From an uncultured Lentisphaerales bacterium (GTDB taxonomy: Bacteria; Verrucomicrobiota; Lentisphaeria; JABSQK01; UBA12247): a DNA stretch of 38,531 bases. The translations under genes were made by a program, and so were the position numbers. This document shows positions 8,567-38,531 of the stretch, piece by piece. Location of the stretch: the NCBI GenBank assembly GCA_943788985.1, contig CALSSJ010000008.1, positions 1-38,531 on the forward strand, read 5' to 3'. The notes under the pieces are model-generated. The model worked only from the letters and a program-made list of their open reading frames with translations, made no database searches and was not told the DNA's origin. Every line of letters begins with the position of its first letter. Position 1 is the first letter of the stretch.

Positions 8567-8683
8567 GACTGACAACGAGCATATACTGGAGGGCCCCAGA
8601 GTCTGTTTTAAAAAGGAGCCGGCCTTGAGAAGATTTCCACGTGCAGTCGAGGAAAGGTATTGTGATCGTTGTGGTCCGGGCCG

Positions 8684-10201
8684 ATGAGTAGACTCTTTCC
8701 TCGCGCCGATTGGGCCGATGCACAGGCAATCGCAAGTATCGCCTACTGCAACCCGTTCACAGAACAGAGAATTGAGCTGGAGGCAGCGGTTGCCGGGGCG
8801 AGTGGCCGCAGGGCAATCGCCACTTGGAACCTGAGGCCCGACGCCACTGCCCAAAATCCAGTGCTCGAACGCGTGATCTCGCGAACCGCCGAGTTGGTCG
8901 AGCCTGCCCGTGCAGCAATTGCCAAAGTCACGCCCTCGCCGGAAGAGTGTGAGTGCTATGAGGCGATCGTCTTTTTCCACCTATACCATAAATATGTCCA
9001 CGACTTGGACCTGTTGATCGACAACGGCGATCAACAAGTCAGCTTTTACGATAACTTCTCGGCAGACGCCACGCGTTTCTTGCAGGCGCCGTCCCTGCGT
9101 GAGACTCGCCCTGACGCGGCGCATCTGTTGGCGTGCCTCTATCAAATCAGGCGCGCCTTTCACTACACTCATTACTTCCTGATTGGCAGCTCGCAGCCGA
9201 TGGCTACGCTGCGGGCGGCGATCTGGGAGTCTGTTTTTAGTCACGACATGCGCCGCTATCGGGCCGGTCTCTACCGGCATATGCGTGACTTTGCGACCTT
9301 GATCACCGGCCCTTCCGGCACCGGAAAGGAATTGGTCGCGCGAGCGATCGGGAAGTCTCAGTATGTCGCATACGAGCCGCGAAAGCGTGCCTTCGTGGGT
9401 AGCCCCGCGGTCCATGCGGTGAATCTGTCCGCGCTTTCTCCGAATTTGATCGAGTCGGAGCTGTTCGGGGCTAGACGGGGAGCGTTTACTGGCGCGGAGT
9501 CCGATCACACCGGGTGGTTTGAAACCTGCGGTACCACAGGCTCGGTATTTTTGGACGAAATCGGTGAGCTGGACCCCGCTGTCCAGGTAAAGCTCCTGCG
9601 ACTCCTGCAAACTCGAACTTTTGAGAGAATCGGCGAAACACAGCAGCGGGAGTTCAGCGGGAAACTGATCACCGCGACCAACAGGAGCCTGGATACCGAG
9701 TTCGAAGCAGGGCGGATGCGTCCGGACTTTTACTACCGGCTCTGCGCAGACTGCATTCGCACGCCGACCTTAAACGCACAGCTAAAAGACGAGCCGGCAC
9801 AGTTGGGGCTGTTGGTGAAACATCTCACCAGAGATAACGCTGGCGAGGACATCGCCATTGAAGCAACTCCGTGGCTTGTCGAGTGGATTGTCACTCATCT
9901 GGGGACAGCCTACCGATGGAGTGGGAATGTCAGAGAACTTGAGCAATGCATCAGGAGCTTACTGATTCATGGCACTTATGTGCCAATTGGGGATAACAAT
10001 GAACGTGTCATCGAAGACGCCCAGTTGACGCTGGATCAATTTGTTGCGCGGCACTGTACTCGCGCCTATTTTGAGTCCGGAAGCTACGTGGCTGCCGCCG
10101 AGCGACTTGCCACGGATCGGCGAACCGTCAAGGCTAAGCTAGATGCCACCTATCTGGCGGAGTTGCAAAAAAAAAGACAGGGGGGATATGAGAGAAGGTA
10201 A
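8684..10201 (+). CDS. Sigma54-dependent transcriptional activator (bEBP) with an unrecognised N-terminal domain
   Basis: Walker A GPSGTGKE, ESELFG...GAFTGA, Walker B FLDEIGEL, DFYYRL, WSGNVREL, C-terminal HTH (AAAERLATDRRTV). Confidence 0.92.
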   Translation: MSRLFPRADWADAQAIASIAYCNPFTEQRIELEAAVAGASGRRAIATWNLRPDATAQNPVLERVISRTAELVEPARAAIAKVTPSPEECECYEAIVFFHLYHKYVHDLDLLIDNGDQQVSFYDNFSADATRFLQAPSLRETRPDAAHLLACLYQIRRAFHYTHYFLIGSSQPMATLRAAIWESVFSHDMRRYRAGLYRHMRDFATLITGPSGTGKELVARAIGKSQYVAYEPRKRAFVGSPAVHAVNLSALSPNLIESELFGARRGAFTGAESDHTGWFETCGTTGSVFLDEIGELDPAVQVKLLRLLQTRTFERIGETQQREFSGKLITATNRSLDTEFEAGRMRPDFYYRLCADCIRTPTLNAQLKDEPAQLGLLVKHLTRDNAGEDIAIEATPWLVEWIVTHLGTAYRWSGNVRELEQCIRSLLIHGTYVPIGDNNERVIEDAQLTLDQFVARHCTRAYFESGSYVAAAERLATDRRTVKAKLDATYLAELQKKRQGGYERR

Positions 10202-10332
10202 TTTGTTGCCCTAAGGTGTAATCCACTGCGTAAAATCGTAGCAATTAAAAGGGAAGATGCTCTTGATTTTGAACTGTGCCACTCTACTGTCTCGAGATTA
10301 ACTTGAACAATTTAGGGTAAGGCGGACAACCG

Positions 10333-11160
10333 ATGCCACGCATCAAAATATCAGAGAGCGACTATCCGGCCCACAAAGTATGCACCAAGTGCGAACAGAG
10401 CCTACCTCTCGAGGCGTATTACAGGACGCCCAAAGGCAAGTATGGACGCAGTTCCCAGTGCAAGGAATGCAAGCACTCCTACTATCTCGAGAACGCAGAC
10501 CGCTACAAACAGCGGACGAAGGACTATCGCAAGAAGTGGATGGAGAGCGGCCTGAAGTGTAGCGTCCCCGGCTGCGATCGCCCGCTGGTGTCCAAGCTTC
10601 ACTGCGACCGCTGCCGCACACAACTGCGCAAGTACGGAAAAATCCTGCCGCGCACGAAATACGATCCAAACGACATTATCGATCGTCAGGACGGCACCTC
10701 CGAGATCATCCTGCGCAATCGCAAGCAGGAAGTGTCTGGTCGCGCCCTGGTCGACACCGAAGACGTTTCCACACTCGAGCACTTGCACTGGCATCTCAAA
10801 AGTTTCTGTGTGCAGGCGTATGACAAAACCACCAGCAAGCTGGTCACTCTGTCTCGCTACTTGATGGATCCGCCGGAAGGAGCCAGGATCGCGTACCTGA
10901 ATCACAACTTCCTGGATAACCGCAAAGAGAATTTGCGGATTTGCACTACGCAGCAGATTGGAATTCACCGCCGGGTCGGGACCAACAATACGTCCGGCGT
11001 AAAGGGCGTCAGCTGGAACCGGAAGCGCCAGAAATGGTACGTATGCTTGGTCAAGAATGGCAAGCATTTCTGGGGCGGTGCTCACTCCAAGTTGGACGAA
11101 GCGGTTTTGGCGCGTCGTGCGCTGGAGCAGGAGCATTTCGAGAAGCTCTACCTTTCGTAA
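10333..11160 (+). CDS. Zinc-finger + degenerate HNH + AP2-domain protein (homing-endonuclease-derived, probably nuclease-dead)
   Basis: CTKC...CKEC and CSVPGC...CDRC zinc-binding motifs; LDNRKENLRIC HNH scaffold; C-terminal NNTSGVKGVSWNRKRQKW...EAVLARRALE AP2 signature. Confidence 0.85.
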   Translation: MPRIKISESDYPAHKVCTKCEQSLPLEAYYRTPKGKYGRSSQCKECKHSYYLENADRYKQRTKDYRKKWMESGLKCSVPGCDRPLVSKLHCDRCRTQLRKYGKILPRTKYDPNDIIDRQDGTSEIILRNRKQEVSGRALVDTEDVSTLEHLHWHLKSFCVQAYDKTTSKLVTLSRYLMDPPEGARIAYLNHNFLDNRKENLRICTTQQIGIHRRVGTNNTSGVKGVSWNRKRQKWYVCLVKNGKHFWGGAHSKLDEAVLARRALEQEHFEKLYLS

Positions 11161-11177
11161 GAGCGCTCGCTACTGCG

Positions 11178-11213
11178 CGCCACGTCTCTTTGGGACGTGG
11201 CGTTTTTTTTTTT
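11178..11213 (+). terminator. Rho-independent terminator
   Basis: CGCCACGTCTC-TTT-GGGACGTGGCG stem followed by T11, starting 18 bp after the HNH-AP2 stop. Confidence 0.9.
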
Positions 11214-11285
11214 GTACGTGCATACTACCGTTTCGCGCTGACCGCCTTCAGCGTGTGAACGCAGTGACAGTTAAGGTTGTACAGC

Positions 11286-12614
11286 ATGCAATTTCCCATT
11301 TATACGCCAGCCGAAGCATCGGCTGGAATTCTGCACCGGGCACCGATCGGCGATGGCGCAATCTCGCCGACACTTGCAGCCGGGTTGCAACGAGTATTCG
11401 GAGAACCCTTGGGCGTGGAAGAAGCCGTCGCCCGCATCCTGCAGTCCGTCCGCAATGACGGCGATACCGGGCTGCGGGTCTGGACTGAGCGTATTGACGG
11501 ATCGGCGCCGGAAACATTCGTGATCTCCGCAGCCGAGATTAAGCAAGCCTACGAGACGATTGATCCGGCGCTGCGGGACGCGCTGCACTTCTCCGCCGAT
11601 CGAATTCGTGCCTTTCATGAGCGGCAGCGCGAGCGCTCATGGGTGCATTTTGAAGAGCACGGCGGCGCCCTAGGGCAGCTCATTCGACCGCTGTCGAGCG
11701 TGGGCGTGTACGCGCCCGGCGGAACAGCTCCCTATCCAAGTACACTGCTGATGGGAGCTGTGACAGCTCGCGTCGCAGGAGTCGAAAGGGTTGTCGTTGC
11801 TACTCCTGCGGGCCGCGACGGAATTGCCCCGGTGATCCTCGCCGCCGCACACGTGGCCGAAGTGGATGAGGTATACGCGGTTGGTGGAGCACAGGCTGTC
11901 GGCGCATTGGCCTACGGAACCGAGACCATCACTGCGGTAGATAAGATCGTAGGCCCGGGCAATATTTTTGTAGTCACGGCCAAACGCCAGGTGTTCGGAA
12001 TGGTGGACATCGATTCGCTGCCTGGACCTACCGAGACCTTGGTCGTCGCTGATGCCAATGCAGACCCCGTGCTGGTCGCTGCAGATTTGCTTGCACAGGC
12101 GGAGCACGACACCCAAAGTGCGGCCATCCTCGTCACTCCCAGTCGCGATCTGGCGGAGGCTGTACAGACTCAGATTGCGAGCCAGCTCGAGCCGCTAACA
12201 CGCAAAGCGATTATCGAGGAGGCGCTCCAACAGAGTGGTGCGGTGATCTGCGCGGATTTAGCCGCAGGCGTCGCCCTCAGCAACGGCTACGGTCCCGAGC
12301 ACCTTTGCCTGCACGTAGATCATCCTTGGGAGTTACTGGGCACGGTCACAAATGCCGGGGGAGTATTTCTGGGCGAACATGCGTATGAGGTTCTAGGAGA
12401 CTACACTGCTGGCCCCACCCACGTGATGCCGACCATGGGTACAGCCAGATTTGCCAGCCCGCTTTCCACTCGAGATTTCACCAAGATCATCAGCATTTTT
12501 GGGATGAGCGAGGCCGAATCTCGGGCGATTGCCCCAGCCGCCCAGCTGTTGGCTGAGTCAGAAGGGCTCACGGCCCACGCAAACGCGGTGCGACTTAGAC
12601 TCGAGTCTCGTTGA
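11286..12614 (+). CDS. hisD: Histidinol dehydrogenase
   Basis: GVYAPGG, GGAQAVGALAYGT, VDKIVGPGNIFV, AQAEHD, PEHL, GDY...HVMPT, EGLTAH all present. Confidence 0.95.
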   Translation: MQFPIYTPAEASAGILHRAPIGDGAISPTLAAGLQRVFGEPLGVEEAVARILQSVRNDGDTGLRVWTERIDGSAPETFVISAAEIKQAYETIDPALRDALHFSADRIRAFHERQRERSWVHFEEHGGALGQLIRPLSSVGVYAPGGTAPYPSTLLMGAVTARVAGVERVVVATPAGRDGIAPVILAAAHVAEVDEVYAVGGAQAVGALAYGTETITAVDKIVGPGNIFVVTAKRQVFGMVDIDSLPGPTETLVVADANADPVLVAADLLAQAEHDTQSAAILVTPSRDLAEAVQTQIASQLEPLTRKAIIEEALQQSGAVICADLAAGVALSNGYGPEHLCLHVDHPWELLGTVTNAGGVFLGEHAYEVLGDYTAGPTHVMPTMGTARFASPLSTRDFTKIISIFGMSEAESRAIAPAAQLLAESEGLTAHANAVRLRLESR

Positions 12615-36888: not shown

Positions 36889-38290
36889 CTACTCCTTCGC
36901 CATCGTTAGAGCTTTCGGGCTCTCCACAGAGCCAGCAGGTCGAACGTTCGCTTTCATCTCCAGATCGAAGCCCTGCATTGCTGCCTTAAGTTGCTGGACA
37001 ATCTCTGGGCGGCTGGAAGCCAGGTTCTTTTTCTCGCCGATATCGCGGTCCAAATTATACAATGCCTCCTTCGCGTCAATCACCCGCAGTTTCCAGGACT
37101 TCCAGCGAACCCCTTCCAGCACGCCCCAGTGGGCATAGAAGAAATATTCATGCGGGCTTTCTGCCCCAGCCACTAACGTGGGCATGATGTCCTTTCCATC
37201 GATCACGAGACCCTCAGGAAGTTGAGCGCCGCTGAGCTTTGCGAAGGTGGGAAGTACGTCCATGGCTGTGAGTAGTTGATCGTTCTCACTGCCTGCCGGG
37301 ATCCCTGCAGGCCAGCGGATCACGGTAGGTACCCGTTGCCCGCCCTCCAAGGTGCTACCTTTTTTTCCTCTCAGAGGTTTTGCGGAGCCTTTTGAAGGGC
37401 CGTTGTCAGTCGTAAAAAGCACGATGGTGTTTTCATCGATCCCCTGTTCCTTGAGCGCCGTAAGAATCTGTCCTACAGACCAATCGATTTCATAAATGGT
37501 GGCGGGAAAAATAGCAGGTTTGCCCTTGCCCCTCGCTTTGAGCTGTTGCGCGTATTCTTTTTTGATTTCAGGAGAGGCCGCCAAAGGACCGTGTGGCAGG
37601 GGGTGGGCGATGTAGAGGAAGAAGTTCTCGTCTTTATTCCGCTTGATGAAGTCGACCGCGCGCTCGGTGATGCGTCGTGTCAGGTAGTTGGCATCTGGGT
37701 CCAACTCGATGACGGTTTCACCCTCAAGCAAGGGGAGGGGGGGGGAACTTGAAAAACTTTTGATTCTTGTGCTTCGGATGGATGTCGTGACTGTAGGGAA
37801 TTCCGAAATACTCCTCAAAGCCTTGGCGCGTTGGTAAGAACTCGGGCTGGTCCCCCAAATGCCACTTGCCAAACATGCCCGTCTTGTAGCCTGCGGACTG
37901 CGCTACTTCGGCAATGGTAAGCTCCTTTGGGTTCAAGCCCCTGCCGTCGCCAGCCAAACACACAGGAAACTTCCTGCCCGGCGGAATGTGCTTCATCTTG
38001 ATTTCTAGCGAGGACGGCACGTCCATATCGATCCGTGCTGGATAGCAGCCAGTCATCAGAGCCGCACGTGAAGGCGTACAGAGTGGCGCAGCCACATAGA
38101 AGCTAGTTAGCCGCGCGCCCTCCTTTGCCATCTGATCAATATTTGGCGTGTAGACGTGCTTTCCACCGAAGCAGCTTAGGTCGGCGTAGCCTTGGTCATC
38201 GGTAAAAATAATGACTAGATTGGGTTTCTCTACAGCATAGGAAAGAACCGAACTGAAGAGAAGTAGGAGAAGTAGGTGCTGGATCTTGAT
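36889..38290 (-). CDS. Cys-type (formylglycine) sulfatase; frameshift at the G9 run 37737-37745; start uncertain
   Basis: Signal peptide, KPNLVIIFTDDQGY, CTPSRAALMTG, GKWHLG, FTTDNGP, GKKGSTLEGGQRVP, LYNLDRDIGE. Confidence 0.9.
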
Positions 38291-38327
38291 TAGCGTAGGG
38301 CCCGTTCGTTTGCAGTATTGGTAGGAA

Positions 38328-38356
38328 CTAGTGTAGTGATCCGTGAATAGCTGTAC
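38328..38356 (+). mobile_element. IS630-like terminal sequence just upstream of the sulfatase
   Basis: CTAGTGTAGTGATCCGTGAATAG resembles the other CTAGTGT ends; any partner end would lie beyond the window. Confidence 0.35.
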
Positions 38357-38531
38357 CTTTCGCGGGCTCTCCTCGACCACAGCCAGCATCAGCAATTCAC
38401 GACGATGACTAGCGCTTTCTACGGCGAGAGTTTTCGCCGATCGAATCGTGATAGCCGAGATCGCGTTTTGCGAAATCGAGTTGCTTCAGCAGTCGCTCGA
38501 CGATCTCTGGGTGATTGCTGGCAACATTGGT

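Follow-up and report, generated by a model that had tools for sequence, protein, structure and literature searches.

I-HmuI-type enzymes are chains of small modules laid along 20-30 bp of DNA. These free-standing HNH_3 ('HNN')-AP2 homing endonucleases belong to group 2 of the His-Me finger nucleases (PDB 1U3E) and include those of the Xanthomonas phages Xp10, OP1 and Xop411. A degenerate 24-bp site is given for the family in PMC3017599, and PMC12724721 lists D74, H75 and N96 as catalytic in I-HmuI. The origin of AP2 transcription factors from HNH-AP2 endonucleases is a proposal of Magnani et al. 2004, as cited in PMC5714182 and PMC10448857. Here we describe an HNH-AP2 gene that has lost this catalytic site, at 10333..11160 (+) of contig CALSSJ010000008.1 from an uncultured marine Lentisphaerales bacterium (GCA_943788985.1). 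The window, i.e., the whole stretch analyzed, is the entire contig of 38,531 nucleotides (nt), and the genome comprises 4.58 Mb in 48 contigs and is 83.6% complete. We put the probability at roughly 0.65 that the gene product, as judged from its sequence and predicted structure, is a multi-module protein that selection has retained and that binds DNA sequence-specifically without cleaving it.

The coding sequence (10333..11160, +), supported by the open reading frame (ORF), its homologues and an AlphaFold2 model, is uninterrupted, starts with ATG and specifies 275 amino acids (aa). The strings LSRYLM and IAYLNHNFLDNRKENLRICTTQQI were both found in its translation. As described in the initial annotation, the intact ORF carries two Cys-rich modules (C17/C20/C43/C46 and C76/C81/C91/C94). 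The profile alignment placed 'vvDH...NL...qqN' on I-HmuI D74, H75, N87 and N96, where the window protein reads A187, Y188, N200 and I209, respectively. The codons GCG TAC (10891..10896, +) stand in the Asp-His place, with support from both the alignment and clade conservation; the codon ATT (10957..10959, +) stands in the place of the metal-ligand Asn, and S174 (10852-10854, +) in that of a His. The AY pair was found exactly where the initial annotation had put it. No metal site is left because Asp is replaced by Ala, the general-base His by Tyr and the distal Asn by Ile. In contrast, the structural residues D195, N196, R197, N200 and L201 are identical in 21/21 aligned sequences. The positions in the model fit a beta-beta-alpha topology, with the residues of the former site where strand 185-188 ends, where strand 201-204 begins and in helix 206-212. 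In the alignment, then, the metal ligands and the general base are gone, and the structural Asn and the DNR motif (LDNRxxNL) are retained. The loss is selective, as had been claimed, with the ORF and all four modules intact.

The dead state is shared by all close relatives. A word-index search returned 46 homologues at E<=1e-3 among 487 candidates. Six of them, of 265-283 aa, are close (99, 88, 76, 69, 66 and 50% identity), and the remaining ones, of ∼200 aa and without the N-terminal ribbon, show at most ∼40% identity. All seven clade members, the window protein included, have Ser174, Ala/Met187, Tyr188 and Ile/Val209 (Met187 and Val209 occur in P0006), when compared with 14 outgroup sequences in the same alignment, which have Asp and the distal Asn in 14/14 cases and His in 13/14. 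The clade alignment holds 108 invariant columns, and the dead HNH core and the AP2 domain are invariant to about equal share (18/42 and 28/56 columns, respectively), with 29/68 in the beta-rich N-domain. Within the clade, C46 and the first three Cys of both zinc modules never vary; position 94 holds Cys or His. The expectation that the dead state is fixed among close homologues was thereby borne out (7/7 at 50-99% identity). The closest homologues are not prophage genes with an intact Asp-His/Asn site, and none of the DNA or RNA contigs compared restored the His. The loss, as read from these alignments, is old and fixed, not decaying.

A wider view was obtained by an exhaustive profile search over 1.84 billion representative sequences, which gave 75,205 matches at E<=1e-3 and 214 at E<=1e-30. 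P0006, standing for the clade, scored 463 bits and the next match 227 bits. With 46 homologues from the word-index search and 75,205 from the profile search, the number of matches is far beyond chance. We classified 206 modules from 192 proteins and the window: 168 were of the Asp-His-Asn (DHN) type and 23 were full-length without the Asp. The best non-clade matches (P0047-P0051, P0057, P0073, P0138, P0153 and P0159) all lack the Asp and the distal Asn, and some retain the His. At position 174, His was found in 0/23 no-Asp modules vs. 144/168 DHN modules. The reading of SR for HR as a further loss was therefore upheld only in part: no no-Asp module retains this His, but Ser also occupies position 174 in 15/168 intact DHN modules, so that SR for HR alone is not diagnostic. 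With a subfamily profile as query, a second word-index search brought in 110 more proteins with 102 Asp-His-Asn modules, and a few further no-Asp modules were found in P0194, P0199, P0239, P0264, P0285 and P0299.

Trees were built from 164 columns with the four trait columns left out, on a sample that is biased, being the top of a search with the dead-clade profile. In a FastTree tree of 197 modules the Asp label changed 4 times vs. a shuffled mean of 22, and 0/500 shuffles were as low. The IQ-TREE set consisted of 70 of the 197 modules: every one of the 23 without the Asp and 47 that have it, the latter picked in the order of the hits with the tandem partner modules added. A careful search, in which the bootstrap was not fully settled and three rows had long branches, placed 18/23 no-Asp modules in a single bipartition with ultrafast bootstrap (UFBoot) 100 and approximate likelihood-ratio (SH-aLRT) support of 95; the same bipartition had SH-aLRT 99 under LG+G4 and 99 in a quick search under LG+C20 PMSF. 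The window clade lies inside this 18-module group with its own support of 100/99. Independent losses of the Asp were placed in P0101 and in four tandem proteins, where they affect the first module of P0052, P0091 and P0130 (409-435 aa) and the second module of P0069 (479 aa). In each of these four the no-Asp module is joined to one intact Asp-His-Asn module, and two dead modules each were observed in P0051 and in a tandem protein of a same-class genome (G326, see below).

The modules apart from the former nuclease site are intact. An N-terminal Cys4 zinc ribbon (residues 14-52 with C17, C20, C43 and C46; 10372..10488, +) is supported by clade-invariant Cys, PHROG and structure matches, and a second zinc finger (residues 73-104 with C76, C81, C91 and C/H94; 10549..10644, +) by conservation and a structure match. 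They are followed by a beta-rich N-domain of I-HmuI-type fold (residues 105-172; 10645..10848, +; I-HmuI match and clade conservation), by the beta-beta-alpha core without a metal site (residues 173-214; 10849..10974, +; model strands 185-188 and 201-204 and helix 206-212), and by an AP2 domain (residues 215-270; 10975..11142, +; Pfam, profile and structure matches). C76 and C91 are near-invariant among 100 family members, in which position 94 is His or Cys, and a zinc finger module of the form CxxxxC..C..H stands in 4-5 copies ahead of the dead module in P0048 and P0049. Residues 181-269 matched PHROG 99 'HNH endonuclease' (E 2.7e-25), and residues 11-101 matched the zinc-ribbon parts of Lar-like and endonuclease VII-type PHROGs, with PHROG 5558 at 1.8e-10 on the N-terminal ribbon. 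The close homologues P0001 and P0002 have a precomputed PF00847 match, and the nearest homologues have PF13392.

The AlphaFold2 model, based on an alignment of 100 relatives, had a mean predicted local distance difference test score (pLDDT) of 94.2 and a predicted template modelling score (pTM) of 0.73, with the AP2 domain modelled as strands 226-229, 234-241 and 244-251 and helix 254-268. Structure comparison with VIA-align against 48,161 PDB representatives gave Z values that are middling on the method's own scale. The best match was I-HmuI (1u3e_M residues 1-105) on model residues 142-216 (Z 6.9, root mean square deviation (rmsd) 2.5 A, 75 residues). Model residues 213-275 matched the AP2 domains of WRI1 (Z 6.2), the AtERF1 GCC-box binding domain (2gcc, Z 5.9) and TEM1 (Z 5.4), residues 9-52 the zinc module of Hpy99I (Z 5.3), and residues 72-102 the A20 ZF7 finger (Z 3.7, rmsd 1.1 A, 31 residues). 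These middling values agree with the sequence evidence, in which the family profile searched against PDB sequences finds WRI1 at 3.4e-10 and I-HmuI at 9.1e-6, in addition to TEM1 at 1.6e-5. The model and these matches agree with the HNH scaffold and AP2 domain originally proposed for this protein. With the single protein, phmmer returned 0 matches among PDB sequences, and Foldseek with the whole model returned nothing at E<=0.001 against the PDB, with weak local AP2 rows only. A search of the ESM Atlas returned generic viral HNH_3 clusters only. Prediction of a homodimer returned a score of 0.00, which is no answer and counts neither for nor against a dimer.

The gene is single copy and gives the sole AP2 and the sole HNH_3 match in the 83.6%-complete genome. 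Its GC content at third codon positions (GC3) is 0.728, within the range of 14 neighbour genes (0.615-0.739). The upstream spacer (10202..10332, +), presumed to hold the promoter and 5′ untranslated region (UTR), is 131 bp long and AT-rich (GC 0.42 vs. 0.573 for the window), and a scan of its + strand for a sigma-70-like consensus found none. Downstream lies an intrinsic terminator (11177..11213, +) with a 12-bp stem (8 GC) at 11177-11203, a 3-nt loop and a T10 run; it folds at -25.9 kcal/mol (z -3.9), a value that 0/200 shuffles reached. Both signals had been noted before, as had the lack of mobile genes around the ORF, and a Pfam scan of the 34 window ORFs detected 0 phage, intron or transposase genes. 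Scans of the window for tRNA and Rfam families found none. Two metagenome contigs of the same species (99.5-99.7% nucleotide identity) share the gene arrangement, and the remaining matches of the metagenome scan are at 29-34% identity. Among 50,697 phage records the best match was at 33% identity, and 0 covered >=80% of the query.

Across 11 studies with marine and estuarine samples, 20 run rows contained the stretch, and 6 of these rows were RNA libraries. Contigs from 4 metatranscriptome libraries of 2 studies cover the gene. The starts of the RNA-library contigs fall between 10315 and 10380, with those at 10315 and 10328 in the upstream spacer, and their ends between 10956 and 11164; being contig ends, these positions cannot give the true RNA start. 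Contig depth in two RNA libraries was 26-37 over the gene vs. 3-7 over most neighbour pieces (one at 23.5), a depth that cannot rank genes. Coverage by the RNA-library contigs hints at most that the gene forms an expression unit of its own. Comparison of the RNA-library contigs with the two metagenome contigs showed 7 variable sites within the gene. Four variants are synonymous (10410, 10665, 10845 and 10899), and the three nonsynonymous ones (I4T, S7A and S168G) all fall where the clade also varies. In the two metagenome contigs and the contigs of the 4 RNA libraries, no variants were found in the A187, Y188 and I209 codons. Homopolymer lengths also differed among RNA-library contigs: an A9 run at 10166, in the last codons of the upstream sigma-54 activator gene, had 1 or 2 additional A, and the terminator T run at 11202-11203 was 1 or 2 T shorter or 6 T longer. 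These differences could be assembly error, strain variation or slippage.

In the proposed mechanism, the protein is a descendant of I-HmuI-type HNH(N)-AP2 homing endonucleases that has lost catalysis. All of the DNA-gripping parts are kept, namely the Cys4 ribbon, the CCC(C/H) finger, AP2, and the beta N-domain together with its beta-beta-alpha scaffold. With the metal site gone and the modules conserved, the simplest reading is that it docks on a long asymmetric DNA site without hydrolysis, for which Smad MH1 and CasPR (see below) are precedents. It would then act as a transcriptional repressor or roadblock, or serve some other site-specific DNA-binding function; such a role is the most likely one. 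The protein may render a host service or be a leftover of genetic conflict.

Several observations weigh against this account. The Pfam matches to AP2 (PF00847, E 1.6e-5, 25.5 bits, profile positions 1-41/54) and HNH_3 (E 1.3e-3, 18.8 bits) lie below the curated cut-offs of 33.3 and 24.8 bits, respectively, so that the proposed alignment to the two profiles succeeded for both families, but below the threshold for both; the HNH_3 match spans profile positions 16-43 only, with the DH part unmatched. Tyr188 is invariant in the clade, and by the precedent of PacI some residual chemistry is conceivable. The RNA-library contigs are no proof of transcription, because DNA is possible in such libraries. 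In the gene and its surroundings neither a candidate binding site nor an insertion scar was found, and the short two-copy repeats present are taken as chance. An orthologue was detected in 0/60 relatives, and none in the species-representative genomes scanned by pattern. Finally, dead members of the subfamily occur in conflict-type and phage contexts, so a role as 'host regulator' is not secure. The initial annotation's domesticated regulator thus stands as to its dismantled site and intact modules, but the regulatory role is conjectural and host domestication one option among others, with dead relatives in defence-like cassettes and in a prophage-like block.

These contexts came from a profile search of 401 same-phylum genomes, in which 5, the window genome included, had a match at E<=1e-8; all matches in these genomes depart from Asp-His-Asn. 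G326, of the same class, has a 244-aa 'TH..L' copy and a 416-aa tandem with two dead modules, G291 an 81-aa remnant of the dead subfamily, G272 a 'CF..K' copy (a 156-aa HNH-AP2-like ORF without a zinc finger, L201 8692-9159, +), and G336 a truncated 'EH' piece. The G326 genes stand in duplicated cassettes ordered as a CxxCxxCC (PF03692) gene, an HTH_3 gene and a dead HNH-AP2 gene (L199 4488-6132, -, and L200 854-3453, +, the latter with the 416-aa tandem); the partner genes are paralogous between L199 and L200 (83% and 62% identity). The cassettes adjoin AbiJ/Abi_C, a SAVED-HNH-like effector domain, Hen1+Pnkp, Shedu SduA, DUF2726 and DUF5677. Around the G272 copy, a DnaB-like helicase, an intact HNH_3 gene and a large terminase make up a prophage-like block. 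Both settings favor a view of the window protein as a component of a conflict system or mobile element: a defence or prophage regulator or sensor, a protector of sites against active relatives, or a targeting partner of an active nuclease, the last also in keeping with tandem P0052, P0091 and P0130, where a dead first module precedes an intact second one. We consider this unlikely for the window gene, since none of these partners occurs in the window, the 34 ORFs of which are of housekeeping type, the target protein has no PADLOC match, and no second HNH_3 or AP2 gene that could serve as a partner was found in the 83.6%-complete genome. In addition, the proteins of G326 and G272 are remote relatives within the subfamily and not orthologues. 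In 87 viral and metagenome loci with 109 modules, 97 were Asp-His-Asn and a hydrophobic residue at the Asp position was found in the window only (0/108 modules with the window aside).

A second alternative retains activity. The protein might be a nuclease or nickase that works by other chemistry, e.g., with Tyr188 as a PacI-style nucleophile, or by other metal-binding residues. Tyr188 is present in 7/7 clade members and Tyr occupies this position in 10/23 no-Asp modules, and PacI (His-Me finger group 20) has Tyr instead of His according to PMC5714182. In the description given there, however, the Tyr of PacI lies in an omega loop and the metal site is kept, and in the window protein the metal ligands are gone. 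A187 and I209 are aliphatic, and the subfamily has I/A/L/M/F and I/A/R/K and similar residues at these positions. Position 188 is His, Thr, Ser, Phe or Arg in other members, with no common alternative catalytic residue, and H191 is variable in intact relatives (INHN, INGN, INRN). We regard such chemistry as improbable. Still less probable is a homing endonuclease gene that was fixed, lost its function and is now in early neutral decay. It would fit the classical cycle of gain and decay of phage HNN-AP2 genes, the 81-aa remnant in G291 and the patchy occurrence of the homologue among the 60 relatives. However, decay in those phages proceeds via truncation, as reported in PMC2248197, which also describes the cycle, but the seven clade members are all full length down to 50% identity, keep their zinc-ligand positions and share the same dead state. 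That state is moreover common to a deep, well-supported subfamily, the GC3 is host-like, and the three nonsynonymous polymorphisms are at variable positions only. A non-cleaving DNA-binding protein retained by selection is the reading that we prefer.

A broader proposal is held tentatively: the subfamily could be an ancient nuclease-dead HNH-AP2 lineage, the window copy a host-domesticated regulator and a living intermediate toward eukaryotic AP2 factors, and the CxxCxxCC-HTH relatives in defence islands an undescribed regulatory or sensing module. Already known are the HNH-AP2 family, its link to AP2 and the general idea that a dead nuclease can be reused to bind DNA. What is new is (i) a deep, supported subfamily without a metal site; (ii) a clade with a fixed Ala/Met-Tyr...Ile/Val state; and (iii) a single-copy member among housekeeping genes of a marine bacterium. 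In the full-text literature searched, which does not cover subscription journals, we found no description of a nuclease-dead bacterial HNH-AP2 subfamily. The idea of the origin of AP2 factors has so far come mainly from shared domains, and a family with a dead nuclease and conserved binding modules, one member of which lies on a cellular chromosome away from mobile-element genes, makes the domestication step testable. The annotation 'HNH endonuclease' of such genes would be functionally wrong, and dead HNH modules would recur as DNA-binding units, as in the tandem dead-plus-live proteins and the defence-island cassettes.

The window genes include purD, ecotin, a sigma-54 activator, hisD, E1 dehydrogenase subunits, purC, asd and a transhydrogenase. 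This neighbourhood was not conserved in any relative searched. In 7 same-order genomes with orthologues of the sigma-54 activator, no other window genes were found close by, and 80 hisD loci (Anaerolineae-type and others) had no window neighbour in common except one purD; an HNH-AP2 gene was found within 3 kb of none of them. Two lineage-typical genes place the contig in the genome's own lineage: purD, with 55-67% identity to same-order genomes, and the gene of the E1 dehydrogenase beta subunit, with 57-63%. The hisD gene directly downstream (11277-12614, +) is 68-73% identical to Anaerolineae and Caldilineaceae hisD vs. 36-43% in the 13 same-order genomes with a match, and is the sole hisD match in the genome. 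By these identities it looks like a horizontal replacement with its 5′ boundary at the dead HNH-AP2 gene. The sigma-54 activator (8669-10201, +) has an N-terminal region of ∼200 aa without a Pfam match, its AAA+ part matched the PADLOC RtcR/PspF-type CARF_AAA_HTH models (1.2e-58), and full-length orthologues (41-47% identity) were found in 9/14 same-order genomes. Near the contig end, the overlapping ORFs 36889..37872 and 37724..38395 (-) match the C- and N-terminal halves of a sulfatase (PF00884), which suggests from sequence a frameshifted or mis-assembled sulfatase gene at 36889-38395 (-).

When compared with the I-HmuI-type enzymes, the window protein shares the order of a beta N-domain, a beta-beta-alpha core with LDNRxxNL and a C-terminal AP2 domain, and many of these relatives also have the upstream CxxxxC..C..H zinc finger. 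The additional N-terminal Cys4 ribbon is found in intact relatives such as P0066 and P0067 as well. Unlike in I-HmuI, the equivalents of D74, H75, N96 and His56 are all replaced, and unlike the I-HmuI-type genes the window gene lies outside a phage, intron or intein. A free-standing homing endonuclease gene has a competent nuclease site, which the window protein lacks. Its AP2 domain reads W-G-G-A, in contrast to L-G in the intact relatives and plant AP2 domains.

Two other systems share the principle. In the Smad MH1 domain (His-Me finger group 16) a dead His-Me finger is reused as the DNA-binding domain of a transcription factor, according to PMC5714182; as a eukaryotic domain from an unrelated branch of the superfamily, without AP2, it offers an analogy of principle only. 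The CasPR proteins of Bacillota phages, which are anti-CRISPR silencers, combine a CapR zinc finger with AP2 and, according to the preprint 10.64898/2026.02.23.707548, silence transcription by binding DNA inside genes. Cys-rich zinc module(s) plus AP2 without an active nuclease are common to both, but CasPRs lack the HNH scaffold and lie in prophage acr loci, whereas the window gene stands among housekeeping neighbours, and the zinc modules of the window protein read CxxC...CxxC and CxxxxC...CxxC/H.

The plant and apicomplexan AP2/ERF factors (AtERF1, 1GCC/2GCC; WRI1, 7WQ5; TEM1, 7ET4) share the AP2 fold with the window protein (Z 5.4-6.2) and have no nuclease activity, as is likewise predicted here. 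There is no sign of special closeness of the dead subfamily to eukaryotic AP2, and WGGA departs from their WLG. The eukaryotic factors have dropped the HNH entirely, whereas the window protein retains it as a dead scaffold.

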